A stretch of DNA of 64,000 nt from Escherichia coli. GTDB taxonomy: Bacteria > Pseudomonadota > Gammaproteobacteria > Enterobacterales > Enterobacteriaceae. Position 1 is the stretch's first letter. Each line of letters begins with the position of its first letter. Positions 1,949 to 59,723 of the stretch are shown in pieces. The notes beneath the pieces were generated by a model, which saw only the letters and a program-made list of their open reading frames with translations, had not been told where the DNA came from and ran no database searches. The stretch lies in the NCBI RefSeq assembly GCF_050920415.1, contig NZ_CP169309.1; one strand, given 5' to 3'. The position numbers and the translations under genes were made by a program.

Positions 1949-3289
1949 ATGAGTTCTCAATTTACGACGCCTGTTGTTACTGAAATGCAGGTCATCCCGG
2001 TGGCGGGCCATGACAGTATGCTGATGAATCTGAGTGGTGCACACGCACCGTTCTTCACGCGTAATATTGTGATTATCAAAGATAATTCTGGTCACACTGG
2101 CGTAGGGGAAATTCCCGGCGGCGAGAAAATCCGTAAAACGCTGGAAGATGCGATTCCGCTGGTGATGGGTAAAACGCTGGGTGAATACAAAAACGTTCTG
2201 ACGCTGGTGCGTAATACTTTTGCCGATCGTGATGCTGGTGGGCGCGGTTTGCAGACATTTGATTTGCGTACCACTATTCATGTAGTTACCGGGATAGAAG
2301 CGGCAATGCTGGATCTGCTGGGGCAGCATCTGGGGGTTAACGTGGCATCCCTGCTGGGCGATGGTCAACAGCGTAGCGAAGTCGAAATGCTCGGTTATCT
2401 GTTCTTCGTCGGTAATCGCAAAGCCACACCACTGCCGTATCAAAGCCAGCCGGATGACTCATGCGACTGGTATCGCCTGCGTCATGAAGAAGCGATGACG
2501 CCGGATGCGGTAGTGCGCCTGGCGGAAGCAGCATATGAAAAATATGGCTTCAACGATTTCAAACTGAAGGGCGGTGTACTGGCCGGAGAAGAAGAGGCCG
2601 AATCTATTGTAGCACTGGCGCAACGCTTCCCGCAGGCGCGTATTACCCTCGATCCTAACGGTGCCTGGTCGCTGAACGAAGCGATTAAAATCGGTAAATA
2701 CCTGAAAGGTTCGCTGGCTTATGCAGAAGATCCGTGTGGTGCGGAGCAAGGTTTCTCCGGGCGTGAAGTGATGGCAGAGTTCCGTCGCGCAACTGGCCTG
2801 CCGACCGCAACCAATATGATCGCCACCGACTGGCGGCAGATGGGCCATACGCTCTCGTTACAATCCGTTGATATCCCGCTGGCGGATCCGCATTTCTGGA
2901 CGATGCAAGGTTCGGTACGTGTGGCGCAAATGTGCCATGAGTTTGGCCTGACCTGGGGTTCACACTCTAACAACCACTTCGATATTTCCCTGGCGATGTT
3001 TACCCATGTAGCCGCTGCTGCACCGGGTAAAATTACTGCTATTGATACGCACTGGATCTGGCAGGAAGGCAATCAGCGTCTGACCAAAGAACCGTTTGAG
3101 ATCAAAGGCGGGCTGGTACAGGTGCCGCAAAAACCAGGATTGGGCGTAGAAATCGATATGGATCAGGTGATGAAAGCCCACGAGCTGTATCAGAAACACG
3201 GGCTTGGCGCGCGTGACGATGCAATGGGAATGCAGTATCTGATTCCTGGCTGGACGTTCGATAACAAGCGTCCGTGCATGGTGCGTTAA
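1949..3289 (+). CDS. gudD: D-glucarate dehydratase
   Basis: ORF 1925..3289; likely start at [22 protein letters not shown]; enolase-superfamily fold, close paralog of gudX. Confidence 0.9.
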
Positions 3290-34665: not shown

Positions 34666-35400
34666 ATGTCCAAACTCGATCTAAATGCGCTGAACGAACT
34701 GTCGAAGGTAGATCGCATTCTGGCGCTGGCGGAAACTAACGCCGAGCTTGAAAAACTGGATGCTGAAGGCCGCGTCGCCTGGGCGCTGGATAATCTGCCC
34801 GGTGAATATGTGCTTTCTTCCAGCTTCGGCATTCAGGCGGCGGTGAGCCTGCATCTGGTGAATCAGGTTCGCCCGGATATTCCGGTGATCCTCACCGATA
34901 CGGGTTATCTGTTCCCTGAAACCTACCGCTTTATTGACGAGTTAACGGACAAACTCAAGCTCAACCTGAAAGTGTACCGCGCTACCGAAAGCGCTGCCTG
35001 GCAGGAAGCACGCTACGGCAAACTGTGGGAACAGGGCGTTGAAGGCATTGAAAAGTACAACGATATCAACAAAGTCGAACCGATGAACCGGGCGCTGAAA
35101 GAACTAAACGCGCAAACGTGGTTTGCTGGCCTGCGCCGTGAACAATCCGGCAGCCGCGCTAATTTACCGGTGCTGGCAATTCAGCGTGGTGTATTCAAAG
35201 TGCTGCCGATTATCGACTGGGATAACCGAACTATTTATCAGTACCTGCAAAAACATGGCCTGAAATATCATCCATTATGGGACGAAGGATATTTATCGGT
35301 CGGTGATACCCATACAACCCGTAAATGGGAACCTGGTATGGCGGAAGAAGAAACGCGTTTCTTTGGCTTAAAAAGGGAATGTGGGCTGCACGAAGGGTAA
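34666..35400 (+). CDS. cysH: phosphoadenosine phosphosulfate reductase
   Basis: 244-aa ORF; PAPS reductase family, C-terminal ECGLH motif. Confidence 0.95.
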
Positions 35401-38424: not shown

Positions 38425-38838
38425 CTTCGGGAATGATTGGTATCAATGACGATAACAAGACCAATAACGGTTTATCCCTACTTAAGTAGGGAAGGTGCAC
38501 AATGTACATCTTCTTTTAATTTCCCGGTATGAGATTTTATATTCACAGTATGAATATTTTATGTAATAAAATTTATGGTAATTATTATAACTAAAAATTT
38601 CTTTGATAATAAAACGAATAACTTGCAGATTTGAAATGCATGCATTATTGTCTTTAAACAATTCAACACATCTTAATATATGCATAGGTTAATTGTATTA
38701 AACCAATGAATATATTTTTGCAGTGAATGTGATTATTGAATTAATTACGCCGTATTTTTTCTTTGTTTTTACCGATAACGGAAGTGTGCCGACGTATAGA
38801 AATGCAGGAGAAATGTCGGAGCATATGAAGGAGAACAA
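38425..38838. promoter_or_regulatory. cas3-casA intergenic region holding the casA operon promoter (H-NS/LeuO-controlled in K-12)
   Basis: very AT-rich 414-bp spacer directly upstream of casA; the regulatory role is from established K-12 knowledge, not read from the sequence. Confidence 0.55.
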
Positions 38839-54586: not shown

Positions 54587-55726
54587 ATGAGCGCGGGAAG
54601 CCCAAAATTCACCGTTCGCCGCATTGCGGCTTTGTCACTGGTTTCGCTATGGCTGGCAGGCTGTTCTGACACTTCAAATCCACCGGCACCGGTCAGCTCC
54701 GTTAATGGCAATGCGTCTGCAAACACCAATTCTGGTATGTTGATTACGCCGCCGCCGAAAATGGGGACGACGTCTACAACGCAGCAACCGCAAATTCAGC
54801 CGGTACAGCAGCCACAAATTCAATCTGCACAACAACCGCAAATCCAGCCGGTGCAGCCAGTTGCTCAGCCGCCGGTACAGATGGAAAACGGACGCATCGT
54901 CTACAACCGTCAGTATGGGAACATTCCGAAAGGCAGTTATAGCGGCAGTACATACACCGTGAAAAAAGGCGACACACTTTTCTATATCGCCTGGATTACT
55001 GGCAATGATTTCCGTGACCTTGCTCAGCGCAACAATATTCAGGCACCATACGCGCTGAATGTAGGTCAGACCTTACAGGTGGGTAATGCTTCCGGTACGC
55101 CAATCACTGGTGGAAATGCCATTACCCAGGCCGATGCAGCAGAGCAAGGAGTTGTGATCAAGCCTGCACAAAATTCCACCGTTGCTGTTGCGTCGCAACC
55201 GACAATTACGTATTCTGAGTCTTCGGGTGAACAGAGTGCTAACAAAATGTTGCCGAACAACAAGCCAACTGGGACCACGGTCACAGCGCCTGTAACGGTA
55301 CCAACAGCAAGCACAACCGAGCCGACTGTCAGCAGTACATCAACCAGTGCGCCTATCTCCACCTGGCGCTGGCCGACTGAGGGCAAAGTGATCGAAACCT
55401 TTGGTGCTTCTGAGGGGGGCAACAAGGGGATTGATATCGCAGGCAGCAAAGGACAGGCAATTATCGCGACCGCAGATGGCCGCGTTGTTTATGCCGGTAA
55501 CGCGCTGCGCGGCTACGGTAATCTGATTATCATCAAACATAATGATGATTACCTGAGTGCCTACGCCCATAACGACACAATGCTGGTCCGGGAACAACAA
55601 GAAGTGAAGGCGGGGCAAAAAATAGCGACTATGGGTAGCACCGGAACCAGTTCAACACGCTTGCATTTTGAAATTCGTTACAAGGGGAAATCCGTAAACC
55701 CGCTGCGCTATTTGCCGCAGCGATAA
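54587..55726 (+). CDS. nlpD: murein hydrolase activator NlpD (LysM + M23)
   Basis: 379-aa ORF; lipobox LAGCS, QQPQIQ repeats, LysM and degenerate M23 domain; known to harbour the rpoS promoter in E. coli. Confidence 0.92.
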
Positions 55727-55788
55727 ATCGGCGGAACCAGGCTTTTGCTTGAATGTTCCGTCAAGGGATCACGGGTAGGAGCCACCTT

Positions 55789-56781
55789 ATGAGTCAGAAT
55801 ACGCTGAAAGTTCATGATTTAAATGAAGATGCGGAATTTGATGAGAACGGAGTTGAGGTTTTTGACGAAAAGGCCTTAGTAGAAGAGGAACCCAGTGATA
55901 ACGATTTGGCCGAAGAGGAACTGTTATCGCAAGGGGCCACACAGCGTGTGTTGGACGCGACTCAGCTTTACCTTGGTGAGATTGGTTATTCACCACTGTT
56001 AACGGCCGAAGAAGAAGTTTATTTTGCGCGTCGCGCACTGCGAGGAGATGTTGCCTCCCGCCGCCGGATGATCGAGAGTAACTTGCGTCTGGTGGTAAAA
56101 ATTGCCCGCCGTTATGGCAATCGTGGTCTGGCTTTGCTGGATCTTATCGAAGAGGGCAACCTGGGGCTGATCCGCGCGGTAGAGAAGTTTGACCCGGAAC
56201 GTGGTTTCCGCTTCTCAACATACGCAACCTGGTGGATTCGCCAAACGATCGAACGGGCGATTATGAACCAAACCCGTACTATTCGTTTGCCGATTCACAT
56301 CGTAAAGGAGCTGAACGTTTACCTGCGAACCGCACGTGAGTTGTCCCATAAGCTGGACCACGAACCAAGTGCGGAAGAGATCGCAGAGCAGCTGGATAAG
56401 CCAGTTGATGACGTCAGCCGTATGCTTCGTCTTAACGAGCGCATTACCTCGGTAGACACCCCGCTGGGTGGAGATTCCGAAAAAGCGTTGCTGGACATCC
56501 TGGCCGATGAAAAAGAAAACGGCCCGGAAGATACCACGCAAGATGACGATATGAAACAAAGCATCGTCAAATGGCTGTTCGAACTGAACGCCAAACAGCG
56601 TGAAGTGCTGGCACGTCGATTCGGTTTGCTGGGGTACGAAGCGGCAACACTGGAAGATGTAGGTCGTGAAATTGGCCTCACCCGTGAACGTGTTCGCCAG
56701 ATTCAGGTTGAAGGCCTGCGCCGTTTGCGCGAAATCCTGCAAACGCAGGGGCTGAATATCGAAGCGCTGTTCCGCGAATAA
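55789..56781 (+). CDS. rpoS: RNA polymerase sigma factor RpoS (sigma-38)
   Basis: ORF 55753..56781; start taken at [18 protein letters not shown] (330 aa); full length with no internal stop; codon 33 encodes Glu. Confidence 0.96.
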
Positions 56782-56796
56782 GTAAGCATCTGTCAG

Positions 56797-56832
56797 AAAG
56801 GCCAGTCTCTTATGAGGCTGGCCTTTTTCTTT
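56797..56832 (+). terminator. rpoS rho-independent terminator
   Basis: AAAGGCCAG-loop-CTGGCCTTTttcttttg. Confidence 0.7.
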
Positions 56833-56901
56833 TGTATGGGGAGTTGGTGTGTTTCGTCGCCTGGATAAGACACGTCAGCGTCCCATCCGGCAATCAACAT
56901 C

Positions 56902-57309
56902 CTATTTGCTCATCATCTTGCGCACCAGCTGCATAAACAGCTCCTGCTCTTCTCCACTCAAACGCCCCAAAAATTCCTCATCCACACTGTCGCCAATCGG
57001 TATCGCCGCAGCAAGTACCTTTTCTCCTTCGGCAGTCAGCCAGACAAAGCGTCGCCGCTTATCAGCGGTGTCATGTTCACGTCTGACTAAGCCACGATTT
57101 TCCATTCTTGCCAACATTTCTGCCAGCGTTGCTTTGGTGCTGACGGCTGCTTCCATCAGTGCCACCTGTTCGATACCAGGTTTATCAGCAATGGCGCGCA
57201 TCACCGCGTACTGTGGTTTGGTCAGGTCAGGTAACTCGTGCTGCCAGCGGGCCGTATGCTGCTGAAAAAGCTGTCGTAACTGATGGAACGCTTTATTTCG
57301 TAACGCCAT
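56902..57309 (-). CDS. MarR/SlyA-family transcriptional regulator
   Basis: 135-aa ORF with winged-helix MarR signature; divergent from the decarboxylase operon. Confidence 0.8.
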   Translation of the reverse strand: MALRNKAFHQLRQLFQQHTARWQHELPDLTKPQYAVMRAIADKPGIEQVALMEAAVSTKATLAEMLARMENRGLVRREHDTADKRRRFVWLTAEGEKVLAAAIPIGDSVDEEFLGRLSGEEQELFMQLVRKMMSK

Positions 57310-57424
57310 GTAAACTCCGGGCTAATTCTCTGTCGCTATCATAGCGGTTTTTCAGTGACGAAGAAGATGTTGTTACTTTTCAATCCTTGCCGCTGTGGAA
57401 ATGAAGGAGTATGTTAATAATAAC

Positions 57425-57438
57425 GTTCGTATACGAAC
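57425..57438. promoter_or_regulatory. perfect 14-bp palindrome, candidate MarR operator
   Basis: GTTCGTATACGAAC about 18 bp upstream of the ubiX-like start, in the divergent promoter region. Confidence 0.45.
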
Positions 57439-57455
57439 AATTAAGATAGTAAGCA

Positions 57456-58049
57456 ATGAAACTGATCGTCGGGATGACAGGGGCTACCGGTGCGCCTCTT
57501 GGTGTGGCATTACTGCAAGCGCTGCGGGAGATGCCGAATGTCGAGACTCATCTGGTGATGTCGAAGTGGGCGAAAACCACTATTGAACTGGAAACGCCTT
57601 ACAGCGCTCGCGATGTTGCCGCCCTCGCTGACTTCAGCCATAACCCGGCGGATCAGGCTGCGACCATCTCTTCCGGCTCCTTTCGTACCGACGGCATGAT
57701 CGTTATTCCATGCAGTATGAAAACGCTCGCCGGTATCCGCGCTGGTTACGCCGATGGTCTCGTAGGGCGCGCGGCGGACGTCGTGCTCAAAGAAGGCCGC
57801 AAACTGGTGCTGGTGCCGCGTGAAATGCCGCTTAGCACCATCCATCTCGAAAATATGCTCGCACTTTCGCGCATGGGCGTGGCGATGGTGCCGCCGATGC
57901 CTGCCTTTTATAACCATCCCGAAACGGTAGATGACATTGTCCACCACGTGGTAGCCCGCGTGCTGGATCAATTTGGCCTCGAACATCCTCACGCCAGGCG
58001 CTGGCAAGGGTTGCCGCAGGCCCGGAATTTTTCTCAGGAGAATGAATAA
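57456..58049 (+). CDS. ecdB: UbiX/Pad1-family flavin prenyltransferase (decarboxylase subunit B)
   Basis: 197-aa ORF; MKLIVGMTGATGAPLG flavoprotein motif. Confidence 0.85.
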   Translation: MKLIVGMTGATGAPLGVALLQALREMPNVETHLVMSKWAKTTIELETPYSARDVAALADFSHNPADQAATISSGSFRTDGMIVIPCSMKTLAGIRAGYADGLVGRAADVVLKEGRKLVLVPREMPLSTIHLENMLALSRMGVAMVPPMPAFYNHPETVDDIVHHVVARVLDQFGLEHPHARRWQGLPQARNFSQENE

Positions 58050-59476
58050 TGGCATTTGATGATTTACGCAGCTTTTTACAGGCGCTCGACGACCAGGGGC
58101 AATTGCTGAAAATCAGCGAAGAGGTGAATGCCGAGCCGGATCTGGCTGCCGCTGCCAACGCCACCGGGCGTATCGGCGACGGCGCGCCCGCGCTGTGGTT
58201 TGATAATATTCGCGGCTTTACCGATGCGCGCGTGGCGATGAACACCATCGGCTCCTGGCAGAACCACGCGATTTCCCTCGGGCTGCCACCGAACACACCG
58301 GTTAAAAAACAGATTGATGAGTTTATCCGCCGCTGGGATAACTTTCCCATTGCCCCGGAACGCCGCGCCAATCCTGCCTGGGCGCAGAACACCGTCGATG
58401 GCGACGAGATCAATTTGTTCAATATCCTGCCGCTGTTTCGTTTAAACGATGGCGATGGCGGTTTCTATCTCGACAAAGCGTGCGTGGTTTCCCGCGATCC
58501 GCTCGATCCGGATAACTTCGGCAAGCAGAACGTCGGCATCTATCGCATGGAAGTGAAGGGTAAGCGTAAGCTCGGCCTGCAACCGGTGCCGATGCACGAT
58601 ATCGCCCTGCATCTGCATAAAGCAGAAGAGCGCGGTGAAGATCTGCCGATTGCGATCACGCTCGGTAACGATCCGATCATCACCCTGATGGGCGCCACCC
58701 CGCTGAAATATGATCAATCGGAGTACGAAATGGCGGGCGCACTACGCGAAAGCCCGTACCCGATCGCCACCGCCCCGCTGACCGGTTTTGATGTGCCGTG
58801 GGGCTCGGAGGTGATCCTCGAAGGGGTAATCGAAAGCCGTAAACGCGAGATTGAAGGGCCGTTCGGTGAATTTACCGGCCACTACTCCGGCGGGCGCAAC
58901 ATGACCGTGGTGCGCATCGATAAAGTCTCTTACCGCACCAAACCGATTTTTGAATCGCTCTATCTCGGTATGCCGTGGACCGAAATCGACTACCTGATGG
59001 GGCCAGCCACCTGTGTGCCGCTGTATCAGCAACTGAAAGCCGAGTTCCCGGAAGTGCAGGCGGTGAACGCTATGTACACCCACGGCCTGCTGGCGATTAT
59101 CTCCACCAAAAAACGCTATGGCGGCTTTGCCCGCGCAGTGGGCCTGCGTGCGATGACCACGCCGCACGGTCTGGGTTATGTGAAGATGGTGATTATGGTC
59201 GATGAAGACGTTGACCCGTTCAACCTGCCGCAGGTGATGTGGGCGCTCTCGTCGAAAGTGAACCCGGCAGGCGATCTGGTGCAACTGCCGAATATGTCCG
59301 TGCTGGAACTCGACCCAGGCTCAAGCCCGGCGGGGATCACCGATAAGCTGATTATCGACGCCACCACGCCTGTCGCCCCGGACAACCGTGGCCACTACAG
59401 CCAGCCGGTGGTGGACTTACCGGAAACCAAAGCCTGGGCTGAAAAACTGACCGCTATGCTGGCCGCACGTAAATAA
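58049..59476 (+). CDS. ecdC: UbiD-family (hydroxyarylic acid) decarboxylase subunit C
   Basis: 475-aa ORF with UbiD family signature; start overlaps the ubiX-like stop. Confidence 0.85.
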   Translation: MAFDDLRSFLQALDDQGQLLKISEEVNAEPDLAAAANATGRIGDGAPALWFDNIRGFTDARVAMNTIGSWQNHAISLGLPPNTPVKKQIDEFIRRWDNFPIAPERRANPAWAQNTVDGDEINLFNILPLFRLNDGDGGFYLDKACVVSRDPLDPDNFGKQNVGIYRMEVKGKRKLGLQPVPMHDIALHLHKAEERGEDLPIAITLGNDPIITLMGATPLKYDQSEYEMAGALRESPYPIATAPLTGFDVPWGSEVILEGVIESRKREIEGPFGEFTGHYSGGRNMTVVRIDKVSYRTKPIFESLYLGMPWTEIDYLMGPATCVPLYQQLKAEFPEVQAVNAMYTHGLLAIISTKKRYGGFARAVGLRAMTTPHGLGYVKMVIMVDEDVDPFNLPQVMWALSSKVNPAGDLVQLPNMSVLELDPGSSPAGITDKLIIDATTPVAPDNRGHYSQPVVDLPETKAWAEKLTAMLAARK

Positions 59477-59486
59477 GGAGAACAAG

Positions 59487-59723
59487 ATGATTTGTCCACG
59501 TTGTGCCGATGAACAGATTGAAGTGATGGCGAAATCGCCGGTGAAAAATGTCTGGACGGTCTACCAGTGCCAGCATTGCCTTTATACCTGGCGCGATACT
59601 GAACCGCTACGCCGCACCAGCCGCGAACATTATCCCGAAGCCTTCCGCATGACGCAGAAAGATATTGATGACGCGCCGATGGTGCCGAGCATCCCGCCGC
59701 TGCTGGCGGAAGGTAAGCGCTAA
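59487..59723 (+). CDS. ecdD: small decarboxylase subunit D (zinc-ribbon-like)
   Basis: 78-aa ORF with CPRC...CQHC motif, third gene of a B-C-D decarboxylase operon. Confidence 0.7.
   Translation: MICPRCADEQIEVMAKSPVKNVWTVYQCQHCLYTWRDTEPLRRTSREHYPEAFRMTQKDIDDAPMVPSIPPLLAEGKR

Follow-up and report, generated by a model that had tools for sequence, protein, structure and literature searches.

The 64,000-nucleotide stretch of Escherichia coli DNA analyzed here (the window; RefSeq assembly GCF_050920415.1, contig NZ_CP169309.1) carries, next to rpoS, a minus-strand regulator reading frame of 135 amino acids facing a plus-strand ubiX-like reading frame of 197 amino acids that opens at 57456 and heads a decarboxylase operon (Table 1). 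A GntP-family (ygbN-type) transporter gene lies downstream of the vdc genes. RefSeq annotation of other strains uses the same start codons for hosA and vdcB, and names the vdcB product 'non-oxidative hydroxyarylic acid decarboxylases subunit B'. Of 5426 complete E. coli genomes, 2404 carry the hosA-vdcB stretch, in every case as chromosomal DNA, and the locus is a hosA/vdcBCD insert in the polymorphic region adjoining rpoS. Over 56902-57700, only nine E. coli genomes reach 99% identity or more with the window.

Table 1. Genes and sequence features around the hosA-vdcB intergenic region, in window coordinates.
Feature	Position	Strand	Sequence or description	Support
nlpD	54587-55726		upstream neighbor	identified from translation
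rpoS	55753-56781		upstream neighbor	identified from translation
hosA	56902-57309	-	MarR-family winged-helix repressor that senses 4-hydroxybenzoate	Pfam MarR E=1e-12; PDB 8AGA match
Second conserved block	57336-57345		CTATCATAGC, within the 13-bp odd palindrome CGCTATCATAGCG (57334-57346)	candidate hosA -10 (TATGAT, minus strand)
Inferred operon -35	57387-57392	+	TTGCCG	CTTG conserved in cross-genus alignment; 17-bp spacer of the best sigma-70-like match in 65/71 regions
Inferred operon -10	57410-57415	+	TATGTT	ends 9 nt before the palindrome
HosA operator O1	57425-57438		GTTCGTATACGAAC; 5-bp arms GTTCG/CGAAC, 4-bp YRYR center	same sequence as published HosA oligos and genomic allele; arms invariant in 71 intergenic regions
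vdcB, operon gene 1	57456-58049	+	ubiX-like flavin prenyltransferase	NCBIfam VdcB NF041206, 312 bits (cut-off 290)
vdcC	58049-59476	+	UbiD-family decarboxylase subunit C	NCBIfam VdcC NF041204, 790 bits (cut-off 650); Pfam UbiD N-terminal, core and C-terminal domains
vdcD	59487-59723	+	small subunit D	NCBIfam VdcD NF041205, 120 bits (cut-off 30)

The two divergent units are separated by 146 bp (57310-57455), and within this region lies the perfect 14-bp palindrome GTTCGTATACGAAC (57425-57438), in the context ...TAATAATAAC GTTCGTATACGAAC AATTAAGATAGTAAGCA ATG... It stops at 14 bp, where the flanking letters C and A do not pair. A preliminary description of this DNA had picked out the palindrome as a candidate operator about 18 bp upstream of the ubiX-like start codon; its coordinates, sequence and geometry were correct, and the gap to the vdcB ATG measures 17 nt.

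At the scale of the whole window, which contains six perfect palindromes of at least 14 bp against 4.55 expected from first-order Markov simulations, the palindrome does not stand out; 98.5% of those simulations gave at least one. The two longest in the window are TCCCTACTTAAGTAGGGA (18 bp, 38475-38492) and AAGAAACGCGTTTCTT (16 bp, 35348-35363). Within the 146-bp intergenic region alone, the probability of a perfect palindrome of at least 14 bp is ~0.011 (20,000 shuffles). Since the window-wide statistics fail to single out the site, the argument against chance rests on this local probability and on conservation, and the palindrome statistics by themselves are only suggestive. Searching the 64-kb window for other matches to the 14-mer at up to three mismatches returned none; an arms-only search (GTTCGNNNNCGAAC, up to one mismatch) returned one extra match, carrying one mismatch, which is within chance expectation.

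The preliminary description had assigned the palindrome to an unnamed MarR-like regulator encoded next to it. A PDB sequence search revealed that this protein is identical at 130 of 134 residues (97%, E=2e-82) to entry 8AGA, 'Transcriptional regulator HosA', and that it matches six further PDB HosA entries, with PcaV as the next-best match (E=5e-16). From its sequence, then, the MarR-family gene beside the palindrome is identified as hosA. None of the four residues that differ from the crystallized protein falls in the recognition helix or the wing. Across 81 homologs no change occurs in the recognition helix (S57-M65) or in the wing motif DKRRRF, while the C-terminal third averages 65% identity; the invariance of the DNA-reading elements matches that of the box arms described below.

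The palindrome is the published HosA operator, an element already known rather than a new one. Cao et al. (2018; PMC6261655) placed a palindromic '14-bp TFBS of HosA' in synthetic DNA, observed binding by EMSA and biolayer interferometry with an apparent Kd of 0.09 nM under the assay conditions, and released HosA from the site with 4-hydroxybenzoate (4-HBA, p-HBA). Their oligos have the form TAATAATAAC-site-AATTAAGA, the T_H oligo containing exactly GTTCGTATACGAAC, and those of their Table S1 the form CAGAGGCGTATTTTAATAATAAC-site-AATTAAGAGAATAAACA..., with the same flanks as the window. Liang et al. (2019; PMC6694116) transferred only CGTTCGTATACGAACA into unrelated DNA (dsDNA(HosA)-F), a string identical to window positions 57424-57439, and found that HosA shifts it, that p-HBA releases the protein and that close p-HBA analogs do not. 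EMSA, biolayer interferometry and ITC have thus been published for a sequence identical to the site in the window (PMC6261655, PMC6694116), so that the gel shift with and without a phenolic acid proposed in the preliminary description already exists for this exact sequence. A full-text literature search for the 14-mer found no paper, because the sequence is printed only in supplementary tables.

Both biosensor papers (PMC6261655, PMC6694116) cite Roy & Ranjan 2016 (Biochemistry 55:1120, pmid 26818787). As summarized in two 2024 preprints (10.1101/2024.04.24.590444 and 10.1101/2024.06.07.597875), that study places a palindromic HosA site downstream of the operon transcription start and reports that HosA represses both the HAD (hydroxyarylic acid decarboxylase) operon, in vivo, and hosA itself, the auto-inhibition being repeated in the second preprint; according to the 2024 summary, 4-HBA binds HosA, disrupts its binding to DNA and induces the operon.

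The arrangement of the promoter relative to the box is consistent with this account. A stock promoter scan with a 9-of-12 threshold returned nothing in 56700-57800, so we relied on a cross-genus alignment and a relaxed scan instead. The alignment displays, in order, CTTG(C/T)C, a 17-bp spacer, TAnnTT, 9-10 nt and the box, and in 59 of 71 intergenic regions the relaxed search gives this same arrangement as its best match, the -10 ending 9-10 nt ahead of the box. In the window the corresponding promoter, TTGCCG-17-TATGTT, scores 8 of 12. It would start vdcBCD transcription near 57422, so that the operator would cover about +4 to +17, in agreement with the position 'downstream to transcriptional start site' given in the preprint summaries. 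The window allele departs from other E. coli outside the box: its predicted -10 (57410-57415) reads TATGTT as compared to TATTTT in most E. coli (compared with loci L081 and L082), and before the vdcB ATG (57444-57450) it reads AAGATAG as compared to AAGAGA(A/G) in the others. The latter is a weak Shine-Dalgarno region, in contrast to the strong GAGG at this place in most other genera.

In the favored mechanism, a HosA dimer would set one winged-helix domain on each of the arms GTTCG and CGAAC. With the site beginning ~3 nt past the predicted vdcBCD start, bound HosA would block initiation or promoter escape by RNA polymerase; 4-hydroxybenzoate, a substrate of the decarboxylase, binds HosA and takes it off the DNA, which would induce the operon.

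To place the site in a comparative frame, we scanned one genome per species and obtained 80 hosA loci, with HosA identity running from 99% down to 58%, from Escherichia, Citrobacter, Salmonella, Klebsiella, Enterobacter, Kluyvera, Kosakonia, Lelliottia, Leclercia, Phytobacter, Atlantibacter, Rahnella, Erwinia, Leminorella and Mangrovibacter. A box with at most one arm mismatch precedes the first vdc gene in 79 of the 80. At 70 loci vdcB diverges from hosA across an intergenic region shorter than 300 bp; 66 of these have perfect GTTCG...CGAAC arms with the box 15-24 nt (usually 15-19) before the vdcB ATG, and the other four, all Rahnella, have it ~35-36 nt upstream, three of them with ATTCG as the left arm. 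Anchoring 71 intergenic regions on the box revealed 1.97 of 2 bits per position in the arms and 1.44 in the center, as compared to 0.50 and 0.58 in the flanks. The center is TATA in 29 regions, TACA in 22, TATG in nine, TGTA in seven, CATA in three and TGTG in one, and is always YRYR. Invariant arms around a YRYR center give the recognition code GTTCG-YRYR-CGAAC, and would correspond to a half-site model of 5-bp arms and a 4-bp spacer. The box is a dyad-symmetric inverted repeat with base-specific conservation of its half-sites, as expected of a MarR-family operator that takes a winged-helix dimer.

Nine loci were at first scored as lacking vdcB, which raised the notion that HosA controls other genes there. 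We rejected it: at eight of the nine (L046, L061, L062, L065, L071, L076, L078 and L080) the operon begins with vdcC, with no vdcB beside hosA, and the box is kept. The single exception is L077 (Rahnella perminowiae, 2600-3000), the only locus with a hosA homolog and no vdc genes, as covered by its 6.4 kb. Its divergent neighbor is a 496-aa membrane transporter-like ORF, and where the box would normally stand there is only the decayed sequence ATTCTCATAAGAAC, with four mismatches, making this locus a natural control for the link between box and operon. At L066 (Enterobacteriaceae bacterium LSJC7, 2403-3000) the intergenic region has grown to 598 AT-rich bp, and a perfect GTTCGTATACGAAC box sits 16 nt before vdcB and ~570 bp from hosA, a geometry that argues for the operon as the primary target of the box. 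The box tracks the decarboxylase operon, not hosA. Control of the operon through the box is well supported: the box lies just past the predicted start, keeps a fixed distance of 15-19 nt before gene 1 in most loci, and stays with vdcB when the region expands to 598 bp.

One genome in the survey contributed two hosA loci. The metagenome-assembled genome 'Citrobacter sp. HRGM_Genome_0066' has one, 99% identical to the window, on a 6-kb contig (L001, DXKH01000072.1), and a second (L014) that is 78% identical and Citrobacter-like; the likely reason is a contig of E. coli origin misplaced in this assembly during binning.

Could the palindrome act mainly as RNA? With a start near 57422 it would be transcribed, and it could form a 5' stem-loop of the vdcB mRNA or, on the minus strand, a terminator-like hairpin (flagged by a pattern scan at 57439-57424), affecting stability, translation or termination. 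The predicted fold has a 5-bp stem and a UAUA loop, yet it is no better than that of shuffled sequence (MFE -6.5 kcal/mol, z = 0.06; 98 of 200 shuffles at least as stable), and no minus-strand gene runs into the site that would need termination. Experiments show directly that protein binds the site as double-stranded DNA (PMC6261655, PMC6694116), and invariant arms with no compensatory changes in 71 regions are the signature of sequence-specific recognition by a protein, not of a conserved helix. Finding neither excess stability nor covariation, we rejected a structured RNA or intrinsic terminator, and consider a mainly RNA-level role very improbable.

A 12-codon ORF with its ATG at 57411 (57411-57449; ATG TTA ATA ... 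TAG; peptide MLIITFVYEQLR followed by the stop) crosses the palindrome, its stop lying 6 nt short of the vdcB ATG. We dropped it as a leader peptide: its ATG stands 1 nt after AAGGAG and upstream of the predicted transcription start, and it is probably not transcribed or expressed because its ATG precedes that start.

It is still less probable that the main user of the site is a different factor, such as a SlyA/MarR paralog or a GntR-type protein with a GT-N-TA-N-AC core, and that binding by HosA is incidental. E. coli encodes several MarR/SlyA paralogs (weak NCBIfam matches), and the GTATAC at the center of the palindrome, which we take to resemble the cores of other dimeric helix-turn-helix families, counts in favor of such a factor. 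Against it, 79 of 80 loci combine the box with hosA and the vdc operon, and the box decays where the operon is missing; the window holds no second match to the 14-mer within three mismatches, the lone extra arms-only match being within chance; and HosA binds with high affinity in vitro. As for the idea that the palindrome arose by chance in AT-rich intergenic DNA and does nothing, palindromes of this length are as frequent in the window as expected, but the low probability for the intergenic region alone joins arms that remain invariant across genera while HosA identity drops to 58% and the flanks fall to ~0.5 bits per position, and this conservation together with the published experimental binding refutes it. 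We therefore regard the palindrome, almost certainly, as the HosA operator of the vdcBCD operon, blocking polymerase just after the start and released by 4-hydroxybenzoate.

Whether the same box governs the regulator gene as well was part of the preliminary description, which had proposed repression of both units. The operon half of that proposal stands on conserved geometry; control of hosA through the same site, to which second-hand citations of Roy & Ranjan 2016 and a weak promoter match point, is tentative. We found two weak minus-strand candidates for the hosA promoter. The first, TTAATT-16-TATTAT, would have the box fall exactly in its spacer, and auto-repression through the box would then be explained. 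The second is a TATGAT -10 at 57343-57338, in the conserved CTAT(C/G)ATA(G/A)C block near hosA. In 45 of 71 intergenic regions this core of CGCTATCATAGCG is found at a distance of 26-29 nt (mostly 27-28) from the hosA ATG. It reads TATSAT on both strands, and may serve as the hosA -10 or be bound by another factor. A pattern scan also flags 57332-57348 as a plus-strand terminator-like hairpin with a T-run.

In about 38 of the 70 loci, an imperfect second HosA-like box, O2, accompanies O1. Typically GATCGTGTACGAAC, and GGCCGTATACGAAC in Klebsiella, it occurs in Klebsiella, Enterobacter, Kluyvera, Lelliottia, Leclercia, Pseudocitrobacter and others (including loci L006, L008, L017, L018, L024, L026, L034, L036, L041-L044, L048-L056, L060 and L063). 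Its position is 56-57 bp upstream of O1, with 4 nt between its end and the predicted -35, and 66-99 nt (mostly 82-99) from the hosA ATG. At up to two arm mismatches it is absent from the Escherichia, Citrobacter and Salmonella loci, including the window, where the aligned position (~57368-57381, TGTTGTTACTTTTC) is degenerate and gives no match at that threshold. Intergenic regions in these three genera are often shorter, about 145-172 bp as compared to about 170 in loci with O2. A tentative scenario, which we hold to be possible but on balance doubtful, is that two HosA boxes bracketing the promoter (O1 at ~+4, O2 abutting the -35) were the ancestral layout and that O2 was lost in Escherichia, Citrobacter and Salmonella. 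If O2 is functional, the system of E. coli, which alone has been studied, would represent a derived form with one operator and a different repression strength or cooperativity, and this lineage-specific box, a detail possibly unreported, could matter when HosA-based sensors or promoters are moved between hosts.

Among known systems, the HosA operator of the hosA/HAD locus (vdcBCD, alias ecdBCD) of E. coli UMN026 shares with the window the regulator, the 14-bp sequence, the immediate flanks, the position between hosA and vdcB and the rpoS neighborhood; nothing material differs, the window allele and the one common in E. coli being distinct only in the DNA around the box. More remote parallels, which are functional analogs and not of the same family, come from other MarR-type regulators. 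PcaV is a MarR repressor whose hold on a palindromic operator is broken by a hydroxybenzoate-type ligand. This protocatechuate-responsive protein of Streptomyces coelicolor (PDB 4FHT, 4G9Y) is the next-closest solved structure and, by sequence, a distant relative; it targets the pca ring-cleavage genes, whereas the target of HosA is a UbiX/UbiD decarboxylase. The association of MarR, UbiX and UbiD genes recurs in the Streptomyces bagremycin and ferroverdin clusters, where the MarR regulators BagL/FevM stand beside UbiX/UbiD-type BagM/BagN. Families of this gene set are also the best NCBIfam matches of the window's regulator (88.5 bits, cut-off 230) and of vdcB (342 bits, cut-off 420), and these scores fall under the cut-offs, so the window genes are not members; moreover, the bag and fev genes belong to biosynthetic clusters, whereas vdc is a catabolic or detoxification operon. 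MarR at marO and SlyA, in E. coli and Salmonella, likewise place a winged-helix dimer on a promoter-overlapping inverted repeat, with binding weakened by phenolic ligands as is general in the family. HosA is weakly similar to these families (27 bits, equivalog cut-offs 120-240). Its box has 5-bp arms, a 4-bp center and a single site in E. coli, whereas marO has two sites.

These results add nothing to the biology of E. coli itself, in which the HosA/4-hydroxybenzoate switch is characterized well enough for commercial-style biosensors. They do indicate that a true operator was recognizable from sequence alone, with position, partner protein, target operon and ligand class all correct, and they contribute a comparative view of 80 species-level loci, a recognition code, the tracking of the operon by the box and the lineage-specific second box.

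The printed oligos of Cao et al. 2018 (PMC6261655) contain irregularities. Most rows of Table S1 give the site as the 15-mer GTTTCGTATACGAAC, with an extra T, while the text of the paper states 14 bp. We rejected the 15-mer as a real variant: the identical string appears on both complementary oligos, and the 14-mer is what E. coli strain 7/2 carries, a genome with the same flanks as the Cao et al. oligo. A typographical or PDF/text-extraction error is the likely origin. The F0 oligo is likewise printed without one A before the ATG, and such errors in Table S1 matter to anyone copying the oligo sequences.
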